A stretch of DNA of 64,000 bases, from IMG/VR virus record IMGVR_UViG_3300034062_004313, positions 91,875 through 155,874 of that record; one strand, 5' to 3'. This document shows, piece by piece, positions 2,708 to 20,461 of this stretch; the stretch's first letter is position 1, and each line of letters begins with the position of its first letter. Source of the stretch: a virus. Made by a program: the position numbers and the translations under genes. The notes below the pieces were generated by a model. The model made no database searches, was not told the DNA's origin, and was given only the letters and a program-made list of their open reading frames with translations.

Positions 2708-3853
2708 ATGCAAACAGAAAAAGCTGCATATGATGATTTCTTCGGATTGAATGATATTCCTACCGAAGATGTGATTATTCAGAAAGACAATAATTTTAGC
2801 ACTACAGGAAATGGAGATTTTGATATTCTAAATCCATTAGAAAAAAAAGAAGAAGTTATTGTAGAAAAGAAAGAACAGAATCAAGAAGAAGTTGATATTC
2901 TTGAAAGTGATAAAAAAGAAGAAAAAGAACAAGAAGATATTACAAATATTGTAAACTTCTTTCAAGAAAGGGTTAAGAAGGGAATATTTTCGAATCTTGT
3001 TGATGAAGAAGGAAATGATGTAACGCTATCTAAAGTTGAAGATATTGATAGTTTCTTAGAAGCAAACTTTAATTACAGAGTAGAAAAGGAAAAAGAAACT
3101 CTTGAAACAACTTGGTACGAAACAAAAAGTCCAGCATGGAAAGCAGTTGCTCAATATGCTGATTACGTTCAAGACCCAACACAACTTATTCCATTCCTTC
3201 AAGGTGTTAATAACATAATGAACATTTCTGAAGTGGATGAAACCACAATAGAAGGAGCAGAAAGCATTGTAAGATTTAAAATGCAAGCTTCTGGAGATGA
3301 TGAAGAAACTATAGAAGAACAGATTAAGATTCTTAAAGATTCAGATAAAATTGTTGATATAGCAAAAAGATATAAACCTGCATTAGTTCAGAGTGAAACT
3401 CAAAGACTCTCACAAATGCAAGAAAAAGCTAAAAAGGACCAAGACCAATATATTGAATCCGTTAGAGCCTATGAAAAGTTAGCTATAGAAAATATTGAAA
3501 AGCCTTTATTTGGAGAGAAATTAAATCAAGAAGAGAAAGCAATTATATATGATATGATTGCTATCCCAAATCAAGAACTAGGTGGATACGCTATATTTTC
3601 AGCAATAGATGATTTGTATGAAAAGCAAGACATGGAAACCCTTAGAGAAATAGCTCTTCTAATAGCAAATAAACAAAAATTCTACACTTATGCTTCAAAA
3701 GCTGCAACAGTTAAAACAGCAGCAGATTTGCAAAGAAAGCTTAGAGTACAATTAGAAAGTGATAAAAAAAGTTCATCGAAAGATGACCCTGAAATAACAA
3801 ATGTAAAAGCCCCTACATATAAACAACAAGGCAAGCCGAGATTCGGATTTTAA
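2708..3853 (+). CDS. Acidic scaffold-like capsid assembly protein
   Basis: Very E/D-rich and helical; lies between portal and major capsid genes. Confidence 0.6.
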   Translation: MQTEKAAYDDFFGLNDIPTEDVIIQKDNNFSTTGNGDFDILNPLEKKEEVIVEKKEQNQEEVDILESDKKEEKEQEDITNIVNFFQERVKKGIFSNLVDEEGNDVTLSKVEDIDSFLEANFNYRVEKEKETLETTWYETKSPAWKAVAQYADYVQDPTQLIPFLQGVNNIMNISEVDETTIEGAESIVRFKMQASGDDEETIEEQIKILKDSDKIVDIAKRYKPALVQSETQRLSQMQEKAKKDQDQYIESVRAYEKLAIENIEKPLFGEKLNQEEKAIIYDMIAIPNQELGGYAIFSAIDDLYEKQDMETLREIALLIANKQKFYTYASKAATVKTAADLQRKLRVQLESDKKSSSKDDPEITNVKAPTYKQQGKPRFGF

Positions 3854-3866
3854 AAATTGAAATAAA

Positions 3867-5570
3867 ATGATAAACAACAAAGTAGGACTTGGGAGTTTAG
3901 GTCATCCCGGTATTTTTATCGGTCAGACACGAGTGAAGGGTTTGACAAATCACCTAGATATCCCTTATGTAACAGCACTCGAAGGTGCTCAAACCGACAA
4001 ATTAGACTTTGGTGTGCTTGATTTGTGGGCACTTAAACAAAGAACTGATTCCCCACTTCTATCTTTAGCAGTGGAAAACGCTCAGATTATCTATACTGAT
4101 GCGGATTATTACACATTCGAACTTCCAAGTGCAGCAGAAGGAGTTACAAGACTTATTTCTGGTGGATTGGATAGAGACAAATTTGGTATGGATGGAGAAG
4201 AAATTCCATTCATTGTATCAAGGAGAGATTTATCTCCGGGTGCTATGTTCAAATTTGACTTAACTTCTCCTGTAATGTTCAAAGTGGTAAATAGAATTCC
4301 TGAACAAGTAGGTGAACATTATAGAGTGTGGGCAAGTCTTGTTACAAATGCTCAAGTTCCATATGTAACTAAAGCGGAATTTATTCCTCAAAGGCAAATT
4401 ATAAAACTTGCTGATACAAGAGGATTGGATTTCTCTGCTCATGAATCAACTTGGGGTGTATCAGGTGTTCCTTCATTAATGAAGTTTAAGAACTACTTGA
4501 CAAATGTAAAACTTCAACAAGCTTATAGAGTTACTGAAGGTGCTGTAGAAATGTTAAATCACGAAACAAGATTTGACTCTGCACAACTTAAAGGAATGGA
4601 GAACATGCTTTTGAAATTCTACTCTGTAAGAGGTATTGCTGATAACAAAGTGATTAATATGAATACTGCTGCTCCTCAAGATAGAGAGCGTTATATGCAG
4701 CAAATTCAAGATTCAAGAGTTAAAGGATTGGGTCATAGTGCTATGGTTTCTTTCTTAGATAACGTAGCTATTAATCTTATGCTTCAACAAAATAACAATC
4801 TTGGTATATGGGGTCCAGCAGCTAATAGTTTAGTAGATGGATATGACAGTACAAGATTGGCTCCGGGTGTATGGTTCCAATTAGACCAAGCTGGTTACAA
4901 AACTACTTATGACATTGGTACTTTTGACTTAAATGTTCTTGGAGATGCTATTAAGGACTACGAATTTGGAAAGGTTGAAATGAGAGAATCTGTTTCTACT
5001 AATGTATATGTAATTAGAACTGGTAGAGGTGGACAAGAGATTATATTTGATGCTTTCTTAAAAGCTGGATTCGATATTCCTGCTCAAGTTCAAAATACTG
5101 ACCACGGATTCCTAAGAGGTGATGCAAATAATCTTGTACATAGAGCAGCAAGAATAGTAGAGTTCCAATTGAAAACTATTGGTATACTAAGAGTAGAATG
5201 GGAACCCGGTTTTGACCCTGTAACAGCAGATGAAATTGTAAACCCAATCTTAGCAAGTGGTTACAGACTTTCTTCTTACACTATGTTGATTGAAGATTAT
5301 AACACTTCAGGTGATAATATTGCAATCATTAGAAAGAAAAGCAATAGTAAAATCTCTATGAGAGTTACTAATGGTACTGCTTGTCACCCTATATTCAGTG
5401 GTTCTACAAGTATAGCTGGACAAAATGTTATGTATCATAATGCTGATGATGATTTGAATGGTTACAAAGTTAAGTTTAGTGGTACTGCTGACACTATGAT
5501 AGTGAAAGACCCTACAAAACTTTTGAAGTTAGTTCCGAACAACCCTAAATTAGGTCGCGCAAATTTATGA
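3867..5570 (+). CDS. Major capsid protein
   Basis: 567 aa, crAss synteny, TGRGG motif and C-terminal VKDPTK motif typical of crAss-like capsid proteins. Confidence 0.85.
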   Translation: MINNKVGLGSLGHPGIFIGQTRVKGLTNHLDIPYVTALEGAQTDKLDFGVLDLWALKQRTDSPLLSLAVENAQIIYTDADYYTFELPSAAEGVTRLISGGLDRDKFGMDGEEIPFIVSRRDLSPGAMFKFDLTSPVMFKVVNRIPEQVGEHYRVWASLVTNAQVPYVTKAEFIPQRQIIKLADTRGLDFSAHESTWGVSGVPSLMKFKNYLTNVKLQQAYRVTEGAVEMLNHETRFDSAQLKGMENMLLKFYSVRGIADNKVINMNTAAPQDRERYMQQIQDSRVKGLGHSAMVSFLDNVAINLMLQQNNNLGIWGPAANSLVDGYDSTRLAPGVWFQLDQAGYKTTYDIGTFDLNVLGDAIKDYEFGKVEMRESVSTNVYVIRTGRGGQEIIFDAFLKAGFDIPAQVQNTDHGFLRGDANNLVHRAARIVEFQLKTIGILRVEWEPGFDPVTADEIVNPILASGYRLSSYTMLIEDYNTSGDNIAIIRKKSNSKISMRVTNGTACHPIFSGSTSIAGQNVMYHNADDDLNGYKVKFSGTADTMIVKDPTKLLKLVPNNPKLGRANL

Positions 5571-5643
5571 TTTCTTTAATTCGGATTCTTTGGTACTTTA
5601 AAAGAATTCAATAAAATACAAAGGAGAGCCGTAACTCTCCAAT

Positions 5644-5696
5644 GGTCTCAAAGAAGAACCTCCTCGTGGTGAGACTGGATAATCAACTAATTCTTC
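5644..5696 (+). ncRNA. Minimal HDV-like (theta-like) self-cleaving ribozyme
   Basis: P1 ggtctc(a)/(t)gagact with a G1.U wobble; P2 gaagaa/ttcttc; P3-L3 (a)cc-tcctcgt-gg(t); GG for P1.1; J4/2 actaa containing the catalytic C. Confidence 0.8.
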
Positions 5697-5716
5697 AATA
5701 ATATAAAACCAAATAT

Positions 5717-6709
5717 ATGAACGTAAGATTTCAAATCAAATCAACTTCTCCAAAAGCGGAGAAAGAAGGAAAGGAGATATTAAATTTCTCTGGTGAAGCT
5801 CAAAATTACAGAAGAAAAGCAACGAGAGTTTCGGAAGCTGTAGGTTATAAACCTGATGGTTCACCAAAAATTAAATTCAAAACAGGACTTGACCCTGAAA
5901 GAGTTAAATTCTATTGGTGGTTTAAAGAAGAAGAAAGAGAAGAAGTTAAGAAGCAATTGGAAGAATCTCTACCTGACATAGAAATGAGATTTCATGGAAA
6001 GGAAGTTATTCATGATGAAAATAAGTCGTTTTGGAAAGACCAAAAAGAATTTTATCAAATTGCTCTAACATTAGATACTGCAAATTTGTTCTTTGATACT
6101 AAAAATCCAGACCATGCAGTTTTATATTTTAGCATAATTGGTGGTGCATTTATTGACACTATTGCTCCTACAAAGGATTTAGCAATTGAAAAAAGGATTC
6201 CTCACTATATAGTTCTTGAAAAAGATGCAACTGATGAAGAATTCGTAGATGTTAATGAAAAACTAAAAGCTTCCGCTAACTTGTATAAGCTTATGGAAGA
6301 AGGAAGTGAAGATGCTTTATTTATATTGTGTTGGACTGCTCTTTATAATACGAAAGGATTTGGTAGCATTTTAAAAAGTATGCCAAAGAGTGATAAAGCC
6401 ACTTATCTGAACATGTTTATCGAAGGTGAACTTGTAGATAAGAAAAAGAAAACATGTGCTAAGATATTTAATCAATATGTTGATAGATGGTCAAGTCCTC
6501 AATTAAGAGAAAAGTTGTATGCAGAAGCTTATATTAAAGCTGGAGAACAATATGCTCTTGTTGTTACAAATGATAAAAAGTATGAAACTACATGGGGTAC
6601 ATCTTTAGGAAATACTATTGATGAAGCCGTAGAAAAAATAACACAGAAAAAGTTCGCAAAAGACTTAGACCAACTTATGACAGAAGTTGAGAAAAAATGG
6701 GTAGCATGA
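5717..6709 (+). CDS. Conserved crAss-like protein downstream of the capsid gene
   Basis: 330 aa ORF; synteny only. Confidence 0.55.
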   Translation: MNVRFQIKSTSPKAEKEGKEILNFSGEAQNYRRKATRVSEAVGYKPDGSPKIKFKTGLDPERVKFYWWFKEEEREEVKKQLEESLPDIEMRFHGKEVIHDENKSFWKDQKEFYQIALTLDTANLFFDTKNPDHAVLYFSIIGGAFIDTIAPTKDLAIEKRIPHYIVLEKDATDEEFVDVNEKLKASANLYKLMEEGSEDALFILCWTALYNTKGFGSILKSMPKSDKATYLNMFIEGELVDKKKKTCAKIFNQYVDRWSSPQLREKLYAEAYIKAGEQYALVVTNDKKYETTWGTSLGNTIDEAVEKITQKKFAKDLDQLMTEVEKKWVA

Positions 6710-7359
6710 CAATAGCAGATTTCTCTTTAAAGATAGACCTAAGATTAAATAAAGGAGCTTCAAATGATTATGATGCTATATGGTCTGATGTAAAAGAAGA
6801 AGCTGCAAATAAAGGAGTGACGGATTTTGTAAGAAGACAAGTAAAAGGTAAGAATCAAACACAGGAAGGTGACGAAGAAACAACAGCTAAAGTGGATGAT
6901 TTACAAGTGTTACTTAAACCCGAAGTTCTTAAAGTTACTAAAAAGAATGGATTCTTTGAAACAGAAAAACTCCCACAGGATTATTTATATTATAAACGTC
7001 TCACTCCAAATGTTAAAAAAGGGGAATGTGATTCCTTAGATATAAAATCATATTTTTCAGAAGAAGCAAATGTAGATGATTTAAGACATGTTCCATCTTT
7101 TGATTTTGAAGAAACATTTCACACTTTAGCAGGTAACAAATTTAAGATATATTTTGATGACTTTGACGTTTTAAAAGCGTCTTTAATTTATTATAGAAAG
7201 CCTAAAAAGCTAAACTTCAAAAAACTTAATGACATATTAGAATTTAAAGATGATATATGTGAAATGATAGTGGATGAAACAGTAAAGATAATAGCTTCCG
7301 ATATTGAAAGCATAAATCAAAAGAATTTAGCTCAAGAACGAGTACAAATACAAGAATAA
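6706..7359 (+). CDS. Ring / head-tail connector protein
   Basis: ATGA overlap with the upstream stop suggests a start at 6706; LRLNK..SNDYD N-terminus and YYRKP motif of crAss ring proteins. Confidence 0.65.
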   Translation: MTIADFSLKIDLRLNKGASNDYDAIWSDVKEEAANKGVTDFVRRQVKGKNQTQEGDEETTAKVDDLQVLLKPEVLKVTKKNGFFETEKLPQDYLYYKRLTPNVKKGECDSLDIKSYFSEEANVDDLRHVPSFDFEETFHTLAGNKFKIYFDDFDVLKASLIYYRKPKKLNFKKLNDILEFKDDICEMIVDETVKIIASDIESINQKNLAQERVQIQE

Positions 7360-13259: not shown

Positions 13260-13309
13260 GAATTTAGAAAGAACGTAGCTTTTTTTGGTTTTTGCTGCAT
13301 ATGTTTTTC

Positions 13310-13338
13310 GGAGCCGTTCTCGGCTCTTTTTTCTTTTT
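13310..13338 (+). terminator. Intrinsic terminator ending the capsid module
   Basis: gagccg-ttct-cggctc followed by tttttt. Confidence 0.85.
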
Positions 13339-13367
13339 ATTAACATTTTAAATTGTAATTTTGTATT

Positions 13368-13622
13368 ATGATAATAACAGATAACATATTCTATTTAGAT
13401 AATGGAGTAGAAAGACAAATAAATGTATTTAACGAAAGTGACCCACACTATAGATGTTTTGAATCAGATGGACAGAAACAAATAATCTTTGGAAGAAGTT
13501 CATTTGTAAAAACTGAAAATGGAGAAGTAGATTTCTTCTCTTTAAGCAAAGAAGAAAAAGATAAATTCTGTAATAACACTAATTTTATAAAAACTTATAA
13601 AAAATATGATATACATAGGTAA
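13368..13622 (+). CDS. Hypothetical protein
   Basis: 84 aa ORF just after a TAatTTTG box. Confidence 0.55.
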   Translation: MIITDNIFYLDNGVERQINVFNESDPHYRCFESDGQKQIIFGRSSFVKTENGEVDFFSLSKEEKDKFCNNTNFIKTYKKYDIHR

Positions 13623-13669
13623 AGAATTAAGATGTTGGAAACACGTTAACAATGAATTAACACAACATA

Positions 13670-13701
13670 TTTGATTATATAAAATTATTACACTATATTA
13701 C
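13670..13701 (+). promoter_or_regulatory. Putative promoter of tRNA operon 1
   Basis: TTTG-N20-TATATTAC. Confidence 0.5.
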
Positions 13702-13710
13702 AATATAATT

Positions 13711-13791
13711 ATGAAATACGTAGTAACACATACAACATGTCCACAGTGGTTTACACCGACAATATCGGGAGGGGCTTTGTATGTATACTAA
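13711..13791 (+). CDS. Attenuator leader peptide 1, MKYVVTHTTCPQWFTPTISGGALYVY
   Basis: 12-codon run containing only T/H/C/P/Q/W/F, matching the downstream tRNAs; overlaps the antiterminator strand. Confidence 0.9.
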   Translation: MKYVVTHTTCPQWFTPTISGGALYVY

Positions 13792-13813
13792 GAAATAGCT
13801 GTGTAGTAACATC

Positions 13814-13845
13814 AACCCTCTGAGAAATCGGAGGGTTTTTTATTT
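13814..13845 (+). terminator. Attenuator terminator 1
   Basis: aaccctctga-gaaa-tcggagggtt followed by tttt, directly before tRNA-Pro. Confidence 0.9.
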
Positions 13846-13939
13846 CTAGTTGTGGACGAGAGGTTTATGTCATTAGTCTTGGAAACTAATATCTGCACAC
13901 AGATGGTGTGGGTCAAGGGTTCGACTCCCTTCAACTAGA
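13846..13939 (+). tRNA. tRNA-Pro(UGG) with long variable arm
   Basis: Acceptor ctagttg/caactag; anticodon arm ttagt-ctTGGaa-actaa; T arm aaggg-ttcgact-ccctt. Confidence 0.85.
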
Positions 13940-13949
13940 CTTTTAATTT

Positions 13950-14022
13950 GCCTTACGAAGCTTTTATGGATGAAGTGTACTCTTGTAAAGTACGGAACTG
14001 GACTCGATTTCCAGCTAAGGCT
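13950..14022 (+). tRNA. tRNA-Thr(UGU)
   Basis: gtact-ctTGTaa-agtac; acceptor gcctta/taaggc. Confidence 0.85.
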
Positions 14023-14028
14023 CAAATT

Positions 14029-14101
14029 GGAGAAGAAGCTAACTTGGTAGAAGCGTTAGACTGAAAATCTAAAGGAGTTGGTCCGAAACCAACCTTCTCC
14101 G
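14029..14101 (+). tRNA. tRNA-Phe(GAA)
   Basis: ggagaag/cttctcc; ttaga-ctGAAaa-tctaa. Confidence 0.9.
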
Positions 14102-14103
14102 CT

Positions 14104-14178
14104 AAATACTTAATGAAACAATAAAGGAACAAAGGGGTCCGGGTAGAAATACGTTAGCGCCCATTGATTTAAGTATTT
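14104..14178 (+). ncRNA. Unidentified structured element inside the tRNA operon
   Basis: 10-bp closing stem aaatacttaa/ttaagtattt; inner caat/attg and gggt/gccc. Confidence 0.4.
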
Positions 14179-14183
14179 TTTAT

Positions 14184-14255
14184 TCCTATGTGGTGTAATG
14201 TAACATCCACGCCTTTGAAGCGTTGAGATTGGTGGTTCAAGTCCATCTATAGGAA
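14184..14255 (+). tRNA. tRNA-Gln(UUG)
   Basis: tcctatg/tatagga; acgc-ctTTGaa-gcgt. Confidence 0.85.
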
Positions 14256-14257
14256 CT

Positions 14258-14332
14258 GTCTAAGTGTTCTGACTGGATTCAGATGAATGACTGTGAATTA
14301 TTCAAAAAGGGTTCGAATCCCACTTAGACCCA
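14258..14332 (+). tRNA. tRNA-His(GUG)
   Basis: gtctaag/cttagac plus CCA; gaatga-ctGTGaa-ttattc; short T stem. Confidence 0.8.
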
Positions 14333-14336
14333 ATAT

Positions 14337-14409
14337 ATAGGTACTCATGGCTGGCGTGATAAACAATCTCCAAAATTGTGATTTGTTGAATCGTTCTCAA
14401 CTACCTATG
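14337..14409 (+). tRNA. tRNA-Trp(CCA)
   Basis: ataggta/tacctat, G73; acaat-ctCCAaa-attgt; divergent T loop. Confidence 0.8.
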
Positions 14410-14465
14410 CTTTATAGGTCTATATACCTATATTTATAGATTATAGGTTTTAAAGGCTATAATTT

Positions 14466-14541
14466 GTCCAGATACCTAATATTGATTTTGGGATAGGTCT
14501 GCAACACCTATTAAATATCGGTTTGATTCCGATTCTGGACT
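14466..14541 (+). tRNA. tRNA-Cys(GCA)
   Basis: gtccaga/tctggac, U73; taggt-ctGCAac-accta. Confidence 0.85.
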
Positions 14542-14555
14542 CTATTAAAAATAAA

Positions 14556-14587
14556 TTTTTTTATTTGAAAAAGATTTCGTATATTTG
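14556..14587 (+). promoter_or_regulatory. Bacteroidota-type promoter of tRNA operon 2
   Basis: -7 box TAtaTTTG at 14580-14587. Confidence 0.7.
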
Positions 14588-14612
14588 CTGTATAAATAAT
14601 AAACATTCAACA

Positions 14613-14693
14613 ATGCAACTTATAAATATGATAGTGGATAACGGTATTGGAGCAAACGAGAAGTTTGGCTTCAGGTATTCTATTGTCGTATAA
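14613..14693 (+). CDS. Attenuator leader peptide 2, MQLINMIVDNGIGANEKFGFRYSIVV
   Basis: 14-codon run containing only I/N/M/V/D/G/A/E/K, matching the downstream tRNAs. Confidence 0.9.
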   Translation: MQLINMIVDNGIGANEKFGFRYSIVV

Positions 14694-14714
14694 TTACTTA
14701 CTAACCCGATAAAG

Positions 14715-14745
14715 AATCCTGAGGCCCATCGCTTCGGGATTTTTT
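14715..14745 (+). terminator. Attenuator terminator 2
   Basis: aatcctgaggc-ccatc-gcttcgggatt followed by tttt, before tRNA-Lys. Confidence 0.9.
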
Positions 14746-14749
14746 GTTT

Positions 14750-14824
14750 AATCTCGTAGCAAAATGTGGCTTTGCTTCAGCCTTTTAAGCTGACTAAAAA
14801 TGGGTTCGACTCCCATCGGGATTA
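14750..14824 (+). tRNA. tRNA-Lys(UUU)
   Basis: tcagc-ctTTTaa-gctga; atggg-ttcgact-cccat. Confidence 0.9.
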
Positions 14825-14830
14825 CTAAAT

Positions 14831-14903
14831 GGCTCTTTAGCTCAGTGGTAGAGCTTCGTTTTTACATGACGAGAAAGCACTTGTCCGATTCAAGTAAGAG
14901 CTA
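14831..14903 (+). tRNA. tRNA-Val(UAC)
   Basis: ggctctt/aagagct; tcgtt-ttTACat-gacga. Confidence 0.85.
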
Positions 14904-14904
14904 C

Positions 14905-15234
14905 ATGAAATATATATTAGGAATACTGTTCTTATTAATTATAGGAACAGCAACAAAAACAGGAATTGCAAGTTATTATCATAACAAGTTTCAAGGAAGG
15001 AAAACTGCTAGTGGTGAATTATATGATAAACATAAATTAACAGCAGCTTCTAATCAATATAAACTTGGTGATAGTGTAAGAGTAACAAATACTAAGAATG
15101 GTAAAAGTGTAAATGTTACAGTAAATGACCGTATGGCTAATAATGGAAGACTAATTGATTTAAGTAGAAGTGCTGCTGATAGTCTTGGTTTTATTAAGGA
15201 TGGTTTAGTTGTAGTTAAAGTTAGTATATTATAA
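14905..15234 (+). CDS. rlpA: RlpA-like DPBB lytic transglycosylase with N-terminal signal/TM segment
   Basis: GIASYY...GRKTASGE.YD...LTAA...VRVTN..NGKSV.V.VNDR...IDLSRSAA motif set; start moved downstream of tRNA-Val. Confidence 0.85.
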   Translation: MKYILGILFLLIIGTATKTGIASYYHNKFQGRKTASGELYDKHKLTAASNQYKLGDSVRVTNTKNGKSVNVTVNDRMANNGRLIDLSRSAADSLGFIKDGLVVVKVSIL

Positions 15235-15239
15235 ATATC

Positions 15240-15313
15240 TGTTTTGTAGCTCAGTGGCCTAGAGCGTGAAGCTGTTAACTTCAGGGTCGTGGGTTCGAAT
15301 CCCATCAGGACAG
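15240..15313 (+). tRNA. tRNA-Asn(GUU)
   Basis: tgaag-ctGTTaa-cttca; G73. Confidence 0.92.
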
Positions 15314-15318
15314 CATAT

Positions 15319-15403
15319 TGTGGGATGGTGTAATTGGTAACACGCAAGGCTCATAACCTTGAGACAGAAAATGCTAGCAAGGGTTCGAATCCCTTTCCCG
15401 CAA
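15319..15403 (+). tRNA. tRNA-Met(CAU), initiator-like body, extended variable loop
   Basis: tgtggga/tcccgca; caagg-ctCATaa-ccttg. Confidence 0.85.
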
Positions 15404-15408
15404 CACAA

Positions 15409-15481
15409 GCAGTATAGGCAGATTGGCTTATGCACCTCACTTCCAATGAGGACATGGTGGGTTCGATTCCTACATGCTGCA
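15409..15481 (+). tRNA. tRNA-Gly(UCC)
   Basis: gcagtat/atgctgc; cctca-ctTCCaa-tgagg. Confidence 0.9.
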
Positions 15482-15528
15482 CAAAAATTATATTATGAAA
15501 AATTCTTTAAAAGAAGGTGAAGAGATAT

Positions 15529-15601
15529 ACTCTCATCTTCTAGTTGGTCAGGATAACACACTTTCAATGTGTTGACACGGGTTCAAGCCCCGTTGGGAGT
15601 G
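15529..15601 (+). tRNA. tRNA-Glu(UUC)
   Basis: actctca/tgggagt; acaca-ctTTCaa-tgtgt. Confidence 0.9.
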
Positions 15602-15611
15602 CTTTAAAAAT

Positions 15612-15685
15612 GGTAGATGGGTCTGCTGGATGAAGATGTCGGTCTGTCGAACCGAAGATGATGGGTTTGAATCCCATATCTACCG
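15612..15685 (+). tRNA. tRNA-Asp(GUC)
   Basis: ggtagat/atctacc, G73; tcggt-ctGTCga-accga. Confidence 0.9.
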
Positions 15686-15690
15686 CATTA

Positions 15691-15765
15691 GGACTTGTAG
15701 CCAAGTTGGTAAAGGCCCTTGACTCATAATCAAGAGATGCAATGGTTCGAGACCATTCAAGTCCA
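15691..15765 (+). tRNA. tRNA(CAU), probably Ile2 (lysidine); elongator Met possible
   Basis: ggacttg/caagtcc; cttga-ctCATaa-tcaag; leader 2 contains two ATA codons. Confidence 0.8.
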
Positions 15766-15770
15766 CATAT

Positions 15771-15842
15771 AGGAATATAGTAGAAGGGTTATCACAATTG
15801 ACTGATACTCAATTAATATAGGTTCGAATCCTATTGTTCCTA
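15771..15842 (+). tRNA. tRNA-Ile(GAU)
   Basis: aggaata/tgttcct; attga-ctGATac-tcaat. Confidence 0.88.
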
Positions 15843-15847
15843 CATTT

Positions 15848-15920
15848 GGGGATAAAGCTCTAGCGGATGAGCATCTGCCTTGCACGTAGAAGGTTACGAT
15901 TTCGAGTGTCGTTATCTCCA
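15848..15920 (+). tRNA. tRNA-Ala(UGC)
   Basis: G3.U70 identity pair; tctgc-ctTGCac-gtaga. Confidence 0.9.
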
Positions 15921-15942
15921 CATAGGGGTTCGGAAAATAATT

Positions 15943-15980
15943 AGCTACATCTCTTTATTAATAAGGGTTGTAGCTTTTTT
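15943..15980 (+). terminator. Terminator ending tRNA operon 2
   Basis: agctaca...tgtagct followed by a U tract. Confidence 0.7.
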
Positions 15981-16056
15981 ATTGTCTCAAATATTGTAAT
16001 AATTTGCGACATAATTTATTTTTTGTCAGGTTATAACCTTTCTTTATCTTTGTTTT

Positions 16057-16224
16057 ATGAATTGGCATATACTACCTGTAAATGATATAGAATATCATGA
16101 AGAATCTACCACTTGTAAGTGTGAACCACAAGTAGAATTTATAGAAGGAGATATGCTAATTATACAAAACTCTTTTGATGGTAGAGAAGGAGTTGAATGG
16201 GTAAATGAAATTTTAAATAAATAA
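16057..16224 (+). CDS. Small acidic protein, 55 aa (MNWHILPVNDIEYHEESTTCKCEP...DGRE), absent from the ORF track
   Basis: Has its own promoter TTTG-N19-TAtcTTTG; His/Cys pattern suggests metal binding. Confidence 0.7.
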   Translation: MNWHILPVNDIEYHEESTTCKCEPQVEFIEGDMLIIQNSFDGREGVEWVNEILNK

Positions 16225-16256
16225 TTTGGAAAATTCAAAATAATTTCGTATATTTG
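16225..16256 (+). promoter_or_regulatory. Consensus Bacteroidota promoter of tRNA operon 3
   Basis: TTTG-N20-TAtaTTTG. Confidence 0.85.
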
Positions 16257-16260
16257 CTTT

Positions 16261-16329
16261 ATGAAAACATTATCACTATATAGTTCCTCAAGTTATCTCT
16301 TATTAAGAGACAGGGATTGTATTGTGTAA
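16261..16329 (+). CDS. Attenuator leader peptide 3, MKTLSLYSSSSYLLLRDRDCIV
   Basis: 12-codon run containing only L/S/Y, matching the downstream tRNAs. Confidence 0.9.
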   Translation: MKTLSLYSSSSYLLLRDRDCIV

Positions 16330-16357
16330 ATAGCTATAAGCTTTTAGCTCCCCTAAC

Positions 16358-16389
16358 AATCCCTTGTCTTTCCAGATGAGGGATTTTTT
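16358..16389 (+). terminator. Attenuator terminator 3
   Basis: aatcccttgtct-ttcc-agatgagggatt followed by tttt. Confidence 0.9.
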
Positions 16390-16392
16390 ATT

Positions 16393-16465
16393 GGCTCTAT
16401 GACGTAATCGGCAACCGTCTTGGCTTTAGACCCCAAGTTTTCCAGTTCGAATCTGGATAGAGCTA
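16393..16465 (+). tRNA. tRNA-Leu(UAG)-like, lacking the long variable arm
   Basis: ggctcta/tagagct; ttggc-ttTAGac-cccaa; tccag-ttcgaat-ctgga. Confidence 0.7.
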
Positions 16466-16520
16466 CAAATTAGCAGCCCTCTATGGATAATTCTATTGAC
16501 GAATAGAATATGGGCAAAAT

Positions 16521-16603
16521 ATTCCTGTGGTGAAATGGTGAGACACGGCAGACTTAAAATCTGCTACGGAGAAACGTTGCTGGTTCGAATCCAGTCAGGA
16601 ATA
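16521..16603 (+). tRNA. tRNA-Leu(UAA)
   Basis: gcaga-ctTAAaa-tctgc; long variable arm. Confidence 0.92.
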
Positions 16604-16606
16604 CTT

Positions 16607-16691
16607 AGCAGAATGTCAGAGTGGTTTATTGTGATAGTCTTGAAAACTATTGGGTGTAAAAGCTCCTTGGGTTCGAATCCCAATTTTGCTG
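16607..16691 (+). tRNA. tRNA-Ser(UGA)
   Basis: atagt-ctTGAaa-actat; G73; long variable arm. Confidence 0.92.
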
Positions 16692-16695
16692 CAAT

Positions 16696-16784
16696 AGAAG
16701 ATTGTGTGAGTGGCTTAAACAACCAGTTTGCTAAACTGGCGAGGGATTAAAACACCTCCATTGGTTCAAATCCAATATCTTCTG
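16696..16784 (+). tRNA. tRNA-Ser(GCU)
   Basis: ccagt-ttGCTaa-actgg; G73; long variable arm. Confidence 0.92.
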
Positions 16785-16789
16785 CATAT

Positions 16790-16882
16790 TGTGTTGTAAC
16801 GGCAGTAGACTGTAAATCTACTCTGCATAACAAATTGTCGTACTGGTCTCGCAGTAAGAAGGTTCGAATCCTTTCAACACAA
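16790..16882 (+). tRNA. tRNA-Tyr(GUA), D-armless with oversized variable region
   Basis: tgtgttg/caacaca; gtaga-ctGTAaa-tctac; gaagg-ttcgaat-ccttt. Confidence 0.75.
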
Positions 16883-16908
16883 CATTAACTTATTATTAAC
16901 TATAGACA

Positions 16909-17082
16909 TTTGACTATATAAAGTAAATAGTCTATTTTTGTATTGTACAAATTCCCAACCGTCATAGGAGATTTGTATTTAATTAACAATAACTATATAT
17001 TCGATTGATGTAACTTTGTTCTTAGGAACGCAACTTGACGGTTGGGACCCCTTGTACTTAATTGTATGAGGGGATTTTTTTT
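16909..17082 (+). promoter_or_regulatory. Promoter plus structured leader or small RNA ending in a terminator
   Basis: TTTG-N20-TAttTTTG; perfect 12-bp inverted repeat tcccaaccgtca/tgacggttggga; terminator ccccttgtac/gtatgagggg plus U tract. Confidence 0.65.
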
Positions 17083-17084
17083 GC

Positions 17085-17415
17085 AGACATCCGAGGTTTT
17101 TCTTTCCTTCTTTTACGTCCTCCACAAAAATAAAAGAGTGTCATTAAGATAGTATAGTATATTACACTTGGTATATTATATGATAGGATGTAGAAAAATC
17201 AGCAATGTCTAAGGTGACAACTGGACCTGAACGAAATTATCAGCAAAAACTACATTCCTCCGTGAAAAATAAAATCATCTTATAGCTGATAATTATTTGT
17301 AGATGATTGGCAGGACATGGGAATCTTAGGTTGACAATATGTTTATAGGAGTATGTGTTAACTATAAATACATTATCCCAACAGGGGAAGACCTTGTTCA
17401 GGATAGACCCCCTTA
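17085..17415. ncRNA. Candidate structured non-coding RNA
   Basis: No credible ORF; several long-range helices. Confidence 0.4.
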
Positions 17416-17442
17416 TGTAAATTAACAATAAAATGTAAAACT

Positions 17443-17748
17443 ATGAAAAACCACAAAATGACATCATATCAATTCATGATGTTAATGCAAGAATTACCAA
17501 ATCCAATGTATTATGCTAGAAATGGAGCTAATGTAGGATTTAGAGTAAAAGTAGGATATTTAAAGAAGTCCATTGATAATACTCCTACAATATTAATAAA
17601 TCCTAATTCTCAACCTATGAAGATGGCAGAAGTTGAACAGGTAGAATTTGAATTAGTTCCGAACAATACTATTTGGTATTGGCAACCTGTAGAACCAATT
17701 ACTATAATAACATTAGATAAGAAAGAGTACATTAAAAATTGGGAATAA
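17443..17748 (+). CDS. Hypothetical protein
   Basis: ORF on the coding strand. Confidence 0.6.
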   Translation: MKNHKMTSYQFMMLMQELPNPMYYARNGANVGFRVKVGYLKKSIDNTPTILINPNSQPMKMAEVEQVEFELVPNNTIWYWQPVEPITIITLDKKEYIKNWE

Positions 17749-18056
17749 TGAATATAATAAAATGGTATAAAAGAGTATTTAGAATTCTTACTATAGAAGA
17801 ATGTAAAGAATTAGGATTAGTACATTCTCATAATATATATGGTGATAGTATTAATCATTTAAATTGTAGAAGTATTTGGAAAGATGAAAAGGATAGAACA
17901 TATAGGTGTGAAAGTTTAATACCTACTATAGGAGTACTAGATTTATGGATTTTAAAAATGAAAAATCAAGATAAAGTACAACCAATAACTCAAGAAGAAT
18001 ATAATAAAATAAGAGATGAAGAATTTGAAAGGCTCAAGACTTTATATTCGCCTTAA
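17739..18056 (+). CDS. Hypothetical protein
   Basis: ORF overlapping the upstream stop; start may be 17748. Confidence 0.6.
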   Translation: MGIMNIIKWYKRVFRILTIEECKELGLVHSHNIYGDSINHLNCRSIWKDEKDRTYRCESLIPTIGVLDLWILKMKNQDKVQPITQEEYNKIRDEEFERLKTLYSP

Positions 18057-18093
18057 CAAATAATAGTGTAATTTTGGCTTCTAAATAAAAATC

Positions 18094-18414
18094 ATGAAAG
18101 TATTAACAGAAGGACATTATTATGAACTAGAACATTTTGAAAAAGATGAATCGGGTAGTTCAGAAAGTTTACAATTTATCGAAAAGGTTCCAAAAGGTGA
18201 AGGGAAAGTACAAGATTTAGTAACAGTAAATAATGGAACTACAAATGAAGAAGTTCTTAAAGTTCTAATAAATAGAATGAACTATTTACAAGCAAAATTT
18301 CCATGTAGAGAAAATGCTATTGTAATTACAAAACTTGAAGAAAGTCTAATGTGGTTAGAAAAAAGAACTGTTGATAGAATAGCTAGAAATGTAGAAGGTA
18401 AACAATTAAAATAA
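18094..18414 (+). CDS. tad1: Tad1/Acb2-family anti-defence nucleotide-sponge protein
   Basis: G...E.VL.VLI.RM..LQ..FPCRENA..ITKLEESLMWL.KRT.DRI.RNV.G matches the Tad1 helical-hairpin pattern. Confidence 0.75.
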   Translation: MKVLTEGHYYELEHFEKDESGSSESLQFIEKVPKGEGKVQDLVTVNNGTTNEEVLKVLINRMNYLQAKFPCRENAIVITKLEESLMWLEKRTVDRIARNVEGKQLK

Positions 18415-18422
18415 AATAAACT

Positions 18423-18638
18423 ATGAAAAAACAATTATTTACGTATGCTGTATTATTCCATCAGCATGAAGAGAAAGAGGGAAAATTGGAATACAAAGAA
18501 ACACTTATTCTTGTAGAACCAAAAGTGATTTTAGCAAAGAATAGTAATGAAGTAGCATTCAAAGCTACAAGAGACGTACCAGAACAATATGCAGGATTTT
18601 CAGAAAATGTAGAAATTATAGTACGCCCTTTTAAATAG
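18423..18638 (+). CDS. Small phage protein ending in VRPFK
   Basis: 71 aa ORF. Confidence 0.7.
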   Translation: MKKQLFTYAVLFHQHEEKEGKLEYKETLILVEPKVILAKNSNEVAFKATRDVPEQYAGFSENVEIIVRPFK

Positions 18639-18648
18639 CTCCCCCTTA

Positions 18649-18828
18649 ATGTGGGATAGTGGGAGCAAAGGAGTATGGGAACAATTAGTAGACCCACCTA
18701 AATATAAAAGTACTTTCCAAAATTATATGGGTACAACTACAAATTTAGTAGGACAAGCAATAAACACTTTGACAACAGGAACATCAATATCATATAACAT
18801 GGCAGATGCAATGTCATTCACAAATTAA
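18649..18828 (+). CDS. 59 aa T/S/N-rich ORF, or frameshift extension of the upstream gene
   Basis: The +1 frame is open across the upstream stop. Confidence 0.45.
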   Translation: MWDSGSKGVWEQLVDPPKYKSTFQNYMGTTTNLVGQAINTLTTGTSISYNMADAMSFTN

Positions 18829-18837
18829 AATCAAATT

Positions 18838-19002
18838 ATGAAAACACTAACAAATCTATTTACAAGCAACCCATCTTACATGAAATGGGGTAATGAAAGA
18901 ATTGCAAAAAGAACAGGGCTGAAACCAAAAACAGTAGAGAAATTCAAAAAGAATCCCTTGTATAAGATAATGAAAACCCAATATCTTAACGAGATTAATT
19001 AG
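18838..19002 (+). CDS. Small basic HTH-like protein, 54 aa, absent from the ORF track
   Basis: GNERIAKRTGLKPKTVEKF resembles a helix-turn-helix. Confidence 0.6.
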   Translation: MKTLTNLFTSNPSYMKWGNERIAKRTGLKPKTVEKFKKNPLYKIMKTQYLNEIN

Positions 19003-19012
19003 GAAATGTCGC

Positions 19013-19048
19013 AAAAAAGGCGTATATTGTTATGATATGCGCTTTTTT
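19013..19048 (+). terminator. Terminator overlapping a putative promoter
   Basis: gcgtatat/atatgcgc stem flanked by A6 and T6. Confidence 0.65.
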
Positions 19049-19052
19049 ATTT

Positions 19053-19124
19053 GGCTCCTTAGTTAAATGGATATAACCGCAGAATTCTAATCTGCATTTG
19101 GGAGTTCGATTCTCTCAGGGGCTA
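19053..19124 (+). tRNA. tRNA-Arg(UCU)
   Basis: ggctcct/aggggct; gcaga-atTCTaa-tctgc. Confidence 0.9.
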
Positions 19125-19144
19125 CGAAATCTTAAAAATAAATT

Positions 19145-20461
19145 ATGATTATAACACAAACAATGCAAAAGTTTATTGACAATCCGAAGATGTTAGAGAG
19201 TGGATATTGCTCAAAAGCAAAATTAGCTCAAAGACTTGGAACAACAATAGACGATATTACAGAATCAAGGTTTAAAGTGAAACAAATGATGTCTTCATTA
19301 GACCATGCTCAAGAGTTCTTTAAAGAATTAAAATCAGAAATTGTTAATGAACATACTACAAGAGTAGATAATGAAAAGGGTACTATAACATCGGATGTAG
19401 AAACTACATTTGAACCCAAGAATGATATTGAATTAGCTGAATTACATAAGATTGATTTAACAAAATACAAAATAAGTACATATTGGTCTAAACTAAAGAG
19501 CAATGGTAAATTCACTTCATCTGTATTAGCTACATTAAGAAATATTGATAAGGATATTCCTAAACAAAAAGAATCATTAATAGAAGAAATAGATGAATAT
19601 TTTGGTAGTAAAAAAGCTATTGAAAATTATAGATTCTTCACAAGAGAAATTGATAAGGATAGAAAAACTGCTAAAAATACAGATGGTCAACTATTAGAAA
19701 TATCCATTCCTGATTTACACATTGGTAAAATGTCTCATAGAGAAGAAACAGGGGAAGATTATGATTTAAAAATTGCATCTGCAAGATATAAGAATGCTAT
19801 AACTCAACTATTAAAAACAGCCAATTTAGATAATGTATCTGATATATTACTACCCATTGGTAATGACTTGTTCAATGTAGATAATCAGTTCTCAACTACT
19901 ACAGGTGGTACACCACAGGATTGTGATAGTAGGTTCCACAAGATGGTAGGAGCAGCAAAAGAACTCCTTATAAATACAATAACAGGGTTAAGTGCATTTG
20001 CAAGAGTACATGTTCTTATAGTACCAGGCAATCATGATGAAGTTACAACATTTATGTTAGGTGAAATATTAGAAGCATGGTTTCATAATGATAGTAACAT
20101 AACTGTAAATAATACAGCAAAACTTAGAAAATACTTCCAATTTGGAAAGAATTCTTTCCTTTATACTCATGGAGACAAAGAAAAACATGGGGATTTAGGA
20201 TTGATATTTGCTACAGAAGAACCTAGACTTTGGGCTGATACTAAATACAGATTTGTAAAACTTGGTCATCTTCACAAGCAAAAGAAAATAGAATATATAA
20301 CAACAGACACACTTCAAGGGTTCCAAATAGAAATACTTCCATCACTAAGTTCTGCTGATAAGTGGCATTATGGAAAAGGTTTCTTAGGAGCAAAGCAAGC
20401 AAAAGCCTATCTCTATGATAAAGAACTTGGGGAAATTGCACAGTATACACACACTGTTTAA
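19145..20461 (+). CDS. Calcineurin-like metallophosphoesterase with N-terminal HTH-like segment
   Basis: DLH, GND, GNHD, HGD and GHLH motifs in canonical order. Confidence 0.88.
   Translation: MIITQTMQKFIDNPKMLESGYCSKAKLAQRLGTTIDDITESRFKVKQMMSSLDHAQEFFKELKSEIVNEHTTRVDNEKGTITSDVETTFEPKNDIELAELHKIDLTKYKISTYWSKLKSNGKFTSSVLATLRNIDKDIPKQKESLIEEIDEYFGSKKAIENYRFFTREIDKDRKTAKNTDGQLLEISIPDLHIGKMSHREETGEDYDLKIASARYKNAITQLLKTANLDNVSDILLPIGNDLFNVDNQFSTTTGGTPQDCDSRFHKMVGAAKELLINTITGLSAFARVHVLIVPGNHDEVTTFMLGEILEAWFHNDSNITVNNTAKLRKYFQFGKNSFLYTHGDKEKHGDLGLIFATEEPRLWADTKYRFVKLGHLHKQKKIEYITTDTLQGFQIEILPSLSSADKWHYGKGFLGAKQAKAYLYDKELGEIAQYTHTV

Follow-up and report, generated by a model that had tools for sequence, protein, structure and literature searches.

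A putative ribosome-mediated attenuator ahead of a seven-gene phage tRNA operon

Clustered tRNA genes are found in phages such as T4 and T5, in vibriophages, in mycobacteriophages and in crAss-like phages, and the virus studied here likewise carries them. Such arrays are thought to offset a mismatch in codon usage, the loss of host tRNAs during infection, or the action of host anticodon nucleases. To our knowledge, the regulation of phage tRNA genes is largely unknown, and these genes are usually seen as constitutive passengers. The locus described here raises the question of what a short ORF, composed in large part of codons that the tRNAs behind it can read and followed by a hairpin, is doing directly ahead of a tRNA operon. 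We analyzed a window of 64,000 nt, the 3′-terminal 64 kb of an IMG/VR virus record that spans 155.9 kb and whose source is freshwater lake metagenomes. The tRNA gene array of the window lies on the + strand from 13846 to ~16880, and the element under study is the 135 nt ahead of its first tRNA block. The features of this first unit, including the predicted promoter upstream of it, are as follows.

13670-13701, + strand: predicted promoter of unit 1, with the −33 TTTG at 13670-13673, a 20-nt spacer and a −7-like box TATATTAC at 13694-13701
13711-13791, + strand: leader ORF 1, 26 codons (MKYVVTHTTCPQWFTPTISGGALYVY), ATG at 13711, stop TAA at 13789-13791
13726-13761, + strand: sensor run THTTCPQWFTPT, codons 6-17, only P, T, F, Q, H, W and C, with all seven present
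13721-13790, + strand: protector (1:2) hairpin of the minimum-free-energy fold, its 5′ strand (13721-13735) within codons 4-9
13765-13825, + strand: antiterminator (2:3), in which UCGGGAGGG and the next bases (13765-13788) pair with 13801-13825, including the 5′ arm of the terminator
13814-13845, + strand: intrinsic terminator (3:4), a 10-bp stem (13814-13823 / 13828-13837) capped by GAAA, its U-tract starting at 13838
13846-14542, + strand: regulated tRNA block 1, comprising the seven genes below
13846-13940, + strand: tRNA-Pro(UGG), ARAGORN default
13950-14023, + strand: tRNA-Thr(UGU), ARAGORN 85% thresholds
14029-14102, + strand: tRNA-Phe(GAA), ARAGORN default
14184-14256, + strand: tRNA-Gln(UUG), ARAGORN default
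14258-14331, + strand: tRNA-His(GUG), ARAGORN 85% thresholds
14333-14410, + strand: tRNA-Trp(CCA), ARAGORN 75%
14466-14542, + strand: tRNA-Cys(GCA), ARAGORN default

The original prediction, made from the sequence alone, had placed tRNAs for Pro, Thr, Phe, Gln, His, Trp and Cys downstream of the leader, and ARAGORN recovered all of them. They are divergent; only three of the seven reached the Rfam gathering score. The tRNA-Pro(UGG) gene at 13846-13940 is 95 nt long compared with 73–77 nt for its orthologues in five relatives, and a ~20-nt insertion in its variable region contains a possible CACAC/GUGUG stem that would make a class-II-like long arm. Between tRNA-Phe and tRNA-Gln, a junction of only 4–6 nt in the relatives, there is an 81-nt insert (14103-14183), in which an AU-rich outer stem of 10 bp leads into a U-run; a search of this insert against Rfam gave no match, and its role could be that of a terminator within the block, of a processing signal or of a small RNA. 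The spacer from tRNA-Trp to tRNA-Cys (14411-14465) is 55 nt.

Leader ORF 1 ends 54 nt before tRNA-Pro. The codons of the run at 13726-13761 are those first read there (aca cat aca aca tgt cca cag tgg ttt aca ccg aca), and every one of the 12 can be read by one of the seven downstream anticodons through Watson-Crick pairing or the standard G:U / U:G wobble. The Thr codons are all ACA, as had been claimed, but five of them were found in the sequence rather than four. The run includes the rare residues W, C and H. In a six-frame translation of the whole 155.9-kb genome (311,744 residues), no stretch drawn from {P,T,F,Q,H,W,C} exceeds the 12 residues of THTTCPQWFTPT, and the runner-up has 9. Runs of at least 12 such residues are expected 0.0074 times genome-wide, and from this value the chance of finding one in the 150 nt upstream of block 1 is ~4e-6. 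The sensor run is the kind of regulatory-codon cluster that defines a leader-peptide attenuator, and 13711-13791 is a short ORF with a start codon lying between the promoter, for which the transcription start is predicted, and the genes to be regulated. A second ORF, of 28 aa, overlaps leader ORF 1 at 13737-13823.

A conserved promoter of Bacteroidota type is predicted directly upstream of leader ORF 1. The −33/−7 pattern of Bacteroidota, as in Bacteroides promoters, is TTTG ... TAnnTTTG, and in an alignment of seven unit 1 leaders from the window and its relatives (see below) the TTTG and TA..TT columns are invariant and 20 nt apart. Perfect TAnnTTTG boxes are found in relatives L002 (TATATTTG), L005 and L009 (both TACCTTTG) and in unit 3 of the window; the strict form TTTG-N18-22-TAnnTTTG occurs only 11 times on the + strand of the window's genome. 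The distance from box to ATG is 4–10 nt, and the mRNA is probably leaderless or near-leaderless, with a predicted 5′ UTR of ~2–6 nt. In this genome, real genes of 205 and 55 codons also show the box, 4 nt and then their ATG. A Shine-Dalgarno sequence is missing from all three leaders of the array, as is usual for Bacteroidota, and with such a short 5′ UTR translation would therefore be leaderless or Bacteroidota-style. Stretches of ~40 nt before the leaders (13669-13708, 14545-14586 and 16219-16256) match many lake contigs with 4–6 mismatches, which fits a promoter consensus shared by this phage group.

The minimum-free-energy fold of the unit 1 leader consists of the protector and the terminator (−37.9 kcal/mol, z = −2.83). 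In the protector, 13721-13725 and 13728-13735 pair with 13777-13784 and 13786-13790, as originally proposed, and inner pairs connect 13739-13742 with 13772-13775 and 13756-13759 with 13765-13768. If the folded RNA starts at 13762 and stops short of segment 4, the antiterminator that had been foreseen forms between 13765-13788 and 13801-13825, at −15.8 kcal/mol, equal to the −15.8 kcal/mol of the terminator. The 5′ arm of the terminator gains −10.2 kcal/mol by pairing upstream, compared with −3.4 ± 2.3 kcal/mol in dinucleotide shuffles (n = 200), none of which was as good. The terminator also has the expected form, a GAAA loop on a stem of 10 bp, and UUUUUUAUUU (U6) comes next; its energy is −15.2 to −15.8 kcal/mol, and the U-tract ends 2–3 nt ahead of the start of tRNA-Pro at 13846. 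The stop codon at 13789-13791 falls within the 5′ strand of the antiterminator. Unit 1 thus combines an intrinsic terminator, a mutually exclusive antiterminator, and a protector with a suitably placed stop, which are the RNA parts of an attenuator.

The proposed bistability of this fold, with segments masked by a ribosome, held only in part. The antiterminator wins in co-transcriptional order, before segment 4 is made, but in equilibrium folds of the full-length leader the terminator stays, whichever segment is masked. The switch would therefore rest on co-transcriptional order and kinetics. In classical attenuators, too, the antiterminator wins only in co-transcriptional order. With a ribosome placed at codon 16, the energy of the antiterminator drops to −10.4 kcal/mol. 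This modeling suggests that the most effective stalls are at about codons 6–13, because a ribosome at codons 16–17 starts masking the antiterminator.

The same arrangement is repeated twice within the array, where it precedes the other two tRNA blocks.

14613-14748, + strand: sister unit 2, with leader ORF at 14613-14693 (MQLINMIVDNGIGANEKFGFRYSIVV, run INMIVDNGIGANEK) and terminator at 14708-14748
16225-16385, + strand: sister unit 3, with promoter TTTG-N20-TATATTTG at 16225-16256, leader ORF at 16261-16329 and terminator at 16358-16385

Block 2 (14750-15921) holds Lys, Val, an RlpA-like gene, Asn, Met, Gly, Glu, Asp, a second CAU tRNA, Ile and Ala. Block 3, which follows the leader MKTLSLYSSSSYLLLRDRDCIV with its run LSLYSSSSYLLL, holds Leu(UAG), Leu(UAA), Ser(UGA), Ser(GCU) and a Tyr(GUA)-like gene. 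The unit 2 run matches its own block at 14/14 positions and the unit 3 run at 12/12, and neither matches the other blocks at any position. The numbers of amino acids represented are 7, 9 and 3 in units 1, 2 and 3, together 19, which is all but Arg. Units 2 and 3 also fold as protector plus terminator, with z = −5.4 and −3.8, respectively. Their antiterminators reach ~−25 kcal/mol vs −22.6 kcal/mol for the terminator in unit 2 and ~−22 vs −14.8 kcal/mol in unit 3, and in these two units the antiterminator displaces the terminator in equilibrium folds at some positions of a ribosome footprint masking the sensor. In all three units the stop codon lies within the 5′ strand of the antiterminator, and the terminator U-tract is 2–8 nt from the first tRNA.

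Several genes of the array, and one beyond it, have features of their own. A solitary tRNA-Arg(UCU) at 19053 lies directly 3′ of a strong terminator, and the 5′ arm of this terminator is overlapped by a 9-codon ORF, MSQKRRILL (19006-19035, with AGG and CGT codons). We considered this ORF as a fourth mini-leader, but it is not conserved as an ORF in L002 or L010 and is probably not a fourth sensor. The RlpA-like gene (14905-15234, Pfam DPBB) sits inside block 2, a position that every relative shares, and the N-terminus of its product has a hydrophobic segment, possibly signal or lipoprotein-like. The gene starts with an ATG right at the 3′ end of tRNA-Val, and tRNA processing would therefore free a leaderless mRNA, as in tRNA punctuation; the gene would also be under attenuator 2. 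The Tyr(GUA) gene (16786-16885) was called by neither ARAGORN nor Rfam. It aligns with the clean tRNA-Tyr of the relatives in the anticodon and T arms, but ~10–12 nt are missing around the D arm and the variable region is longer. Either the tRNA has a reduced D arm or the gene is decaying; leader 3 retains two TAT codons. At the position of the second CAU tRNA of block 2 (15691-15766), L009 has a tRNA-Ile(UAU) (6997-7070). Its resemblance to the CAU genes of L002 and L005 suggests that the second CAU tRNA is a lysidine-type tRNA-Ile2; leader 2 has ATA, ATT and ATG codons. The first CAU tRNA (15319-15404) is 86 nt long with a ~12-nt insertion in the variable region, a long form common to L007 and L008 and absent in L002 and L009.

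DNA contigs of four lake metagenomes were identical to 13600-16450 wherever they covered it, and thus there were no population variants to analyze there. GenBank phages gave no match to 13300-16900 by megablast or to a neighboring 381-aa protein by tblastn, and the same protein found no relative in IMG/VR. Pfam recognized nothing in the flanking proteins beyond DPBB on the RlpA-like gene. The search for the crAss ring-protein family in the window's own genome was blank and is itself uninformative, so that we do not claim a crAss-like affiliation. The bacterial RlpA homologues nearest to that of the window are from Chitinophagaceae and other Bacteroidota, which suggests Bacteroidota as the host phylum. 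Using the RlpA-like gene of block 2, we located relatives in other metagenomes (53–90% identity), on contigs L002, L005 and L007-L012, giving nine loci and 18 leader/tRNA-block pairs.

These contigs have the same tRNA blocks, each with a leader ORF 53–65 nt upstream, and the position of leader ORF 1 itself, at this distance from the first tRNA, is kept in seven loci. A hairpin with a U-tract ends all 18 leader/block pairs. The composition of the leaders was scored over a fixed, untuned core, codons 5-16, and for complete blocks the core scores 10–12 out of 12 on its own set compared with 0–2 out of 12 on the others. The order of residues varies among relatives while the set is kept (THTTCPQWFTPT, THTTFFPQWFQT, THTPCTQWFTPT, TRTHTQQFWFPT), and such reordering within the set is as predicted if selection acts on composition and not on peptide sequence. 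The match has exceptions: L011 keeps two Phe codons, with no tRNA-Phe fitting its block, and has an Asn codon in its run, and L010 has an Ile in the run.

The strongest, and in our view decisive, evidence came from two relatives, L005 and L009, in which tRNAs are placed differently: tRNA-Cys(GCA) and Arg(UCU) are in the Lys block, and Arg(ACG) is in the Pro block. In their Pro-block leader, Cys is gone from the core and Arg appears as CGT; in the leader of their Lys block, Cys (TGT) is gained, and so is Arg, as AGA. Because these changes match the moved tRNAs, the leader keeps step with the tRNAs of its block, down to codon and anticodon. Such tracking would be difficult to account for if the ORF were not decoded as a sensor.

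The RNA structures are conserved as well. In the relatives, 90% of the cells of the terminator stem are paired, two pairs are changed on both sides, and none of 500 shuffles was as good; the stem covaries between CCCUCUG/CGGAGGG and CCCAGGA/UCCUGGG, and the antiterminator strand shifts alongside it, from UCGGGAGGG to CUGGGCU. A column-wise test of antiterminator covariation in the 7-sequence alignment was not significant (57% paired, 135/500 shuffles as good), because the register of the pairing varies from clade to clade. We used a fold-and-shuffle test on each sequence instead, in which the pairing gain of the antiterminator was above shuffles in 15 of the 16 leaders tested (p ≤ 0.015).

A degenerate DNA pattern for leader 1 gave 28 matches in IMG/VR, of which one was a true leader with tRNAs (L032, the same contig as L009). 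We rejected the other 27 as chance, since no tRNA block lies directly behind them; one has a lone tRNA-Glu ~770 nt downstream. In L002, a relative of 135 kb, a 225-aa ORF lies between tRNA-Pro and tRNA-Thr and an HNH endonuclease gene between tRNA-Lys and tRNA-Val (inserts at 3666-4343 and 5410-5928 of this contig), showing that mobile insertions land within blocks of this kind, which the attenuators would control.

Taken together, the layout, the shuffles, the sister units, the 18 conserved pairs and the leader-to-tRNA covariation uphold the interpretation of this element as an attenuator sensor for the seven tRNAs. It is probably a transcription attenuator of the ribosome-mediated (leader-peptide) kind, with a phage operon of seven tRNA genes under its control. 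We infer that transcription would begin a few nt before the ATG at 13711 and that a ribosome would translate the 26-codon leader. If 13726-13761 is decoded fast, the ribosome would reach the stop at 13789-13791 and cover segment 2, allowing segments 3 and 4 to pair, and RNA polymerase would stop at the U-tract just 5′ of tRNA-Pro, so that no tRNA is made. If no ribosome is loaded, the protector (1:2) would form and transcription would terminate too. If decoding is slow at any of the seven codon families, the ribosome would stall on segment 1 and free segment 2 (13765-13788), which could pair with segment 3 (13801-13825) before segment 4 is made, and the block would be transcribed. The products of the block being the very tRNAs that relieve the stall, this would be a direct negative feedback, providing supply on demand. 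The sister units would act likewise for nine and three further amino acids.

What such a sensor reports can be argued further. The three leaders may form a regulon sensing tRNA depletion, each checking the host decoders for one third of the code, turning on the matching block when these are short and off once decoding is restored; the shortage might arise from host shut-off, from a host anticodon-nuclease defense, or from a poorly matched host tRNA pool. The sensor itself is unable to tell a shortage of tRNA from a shortage of amino acid. With the same attenuator hardware, the signal could instead be amino-acid supply, tRNA charging or general translation status and not host tRNA abundance, which we consider unlikely; classical trp/his attenuators respond to the levels of charged tRNA, a stalled ribosome is blind to whether a tRNA is missing or uncharged, and the folds of the units fit a charging signal equally. 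The phage would then couple transcription of its tRNAs to the aminoacylation state of the cell, an improbable arrangement to the extent that amino-acid supply is the signal, as extra tRNA cannot relieve amino-acid starvation and the feedback would be futile. Moreover, CGT accompanies ACG and AGA accompanies UCU in the relatives, and as both are Arg codons, this suggests that the tRNA species is tracked and not the amino acid.

It is very unlikely that the leader RNA senses tRNAs directly, without a ribosome, whether in the manner of a T-box, as a decoy, or by titrating a tRNA-binding factor. The leader triplets are indeed complementary to the downstream anticodons, and T-box leaders likewise switch between terminator and antiterminator. 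Against this, with a T-box covariance model and other Rfam families at 13600-19300 (E ≤ 1), only tRNAs were matched and none of these families matched the leader, the triplets share their frame with an ATG and a stop that are both conserved and a fixed distance apart from the block, and twelve consecutive specifiers would be without precedent, with no T-loop or discriminator-binding bulge evident. That the small ORFs are functional micropeptides or chance ORFs and the hairpins ordinary terminators or processing signals is likewise very unlikely, for although AT-rich phage DNA often contains short ORFs and hairpins and a 28-aa ORF does overlap leader ORF 1 (13737-13823), the composition of the run (0.0074 expected), three independent units each matching its own block and no other, the shuffling of residue order with set membership kept, the codon-level covariation with relocated tRNAs, and antiterminator complementarity far beyond shuffles all speak otherwise.

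The predicted attenuator has clear counterparts among known systems. Leader-peptide attenuators are known for amino-acid and synthetase genes. Those of the amino-acid operons (trpL, hisL, pheL, leuL, thrL) have the same short leader ORF with a run of regulatory codons, the same mutually exclusive protector, antiterminator and terminator with the terminator immediately before the regulated genes, and the same placement of the stop, by which an unstalled ribosome blocks the antiterminator. They control biosynthetic enzymes, whereas the phage element would control tRNAs and hence feed back on the supply of decoders. Their leaders carry a homopolymeric run, whereas the phage sensors mix 7 (9 and 3 in the sister units) amino acids, mostly once or twice each; the enterobacterial ilvGMEDA (Ile/Leu/Val) and thr (Thr/Ile) leaders are likewise multivalent. 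The present element differs further in being phage-encoded, with a Bacteroidota-type promoter, a probably leaderless mRNA, and three units that partition 19 amino acids. In E. coli pheST, the attenuator with the pheM leader controls Phe-tRNA synthetase through the speed at which cognate codons are decoded. It likewise acts on a component of the translation machinery by leader decoding speed, but it is cellular, reads a single amino-acid signal and regulates a protein gene, with no tRNA genes behind it. T-box riboswitches also report the state of tRNA through a terminator/antiterminator switch and control translation-related genes; they bind uncharged tRNA directly by one specifier codon with no ribosome, unlike the phage element with its in-frame ORF. 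In a full-text search of the literature, we found no description of attenuators before phage or cellular tRNA genes, and no published phage tRNA array gated by cognate-codon leader peptides.

If the attenuator works as proposed, the phage would gauge the decoding capacity of the infected cell and top it up only where needed, with a direct feedback between tRNA function and tRNA synthesis of a kind that is not known to have been described for any tRNA gene. If the three leaders do form a regulon that senses tRNA depletion, these would be the first tRNA genes controlled by their own decoding activity, and the phage would have a built-in counter-measure to tRNA-targeting immunity. For organisms beyond the reach of culture, the leaders would predict the isoacceptor by which each codon is read, and the units, being short (~140 nt) and modular, could serve as synthetic sensors of tRNA availability. 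The finding would bear on why phages carry tRNAs, be it codon mismatch, the decay of host tRNAs or escape from anticodon nucleases, and on why these tRNAs sort into fixed blocks.
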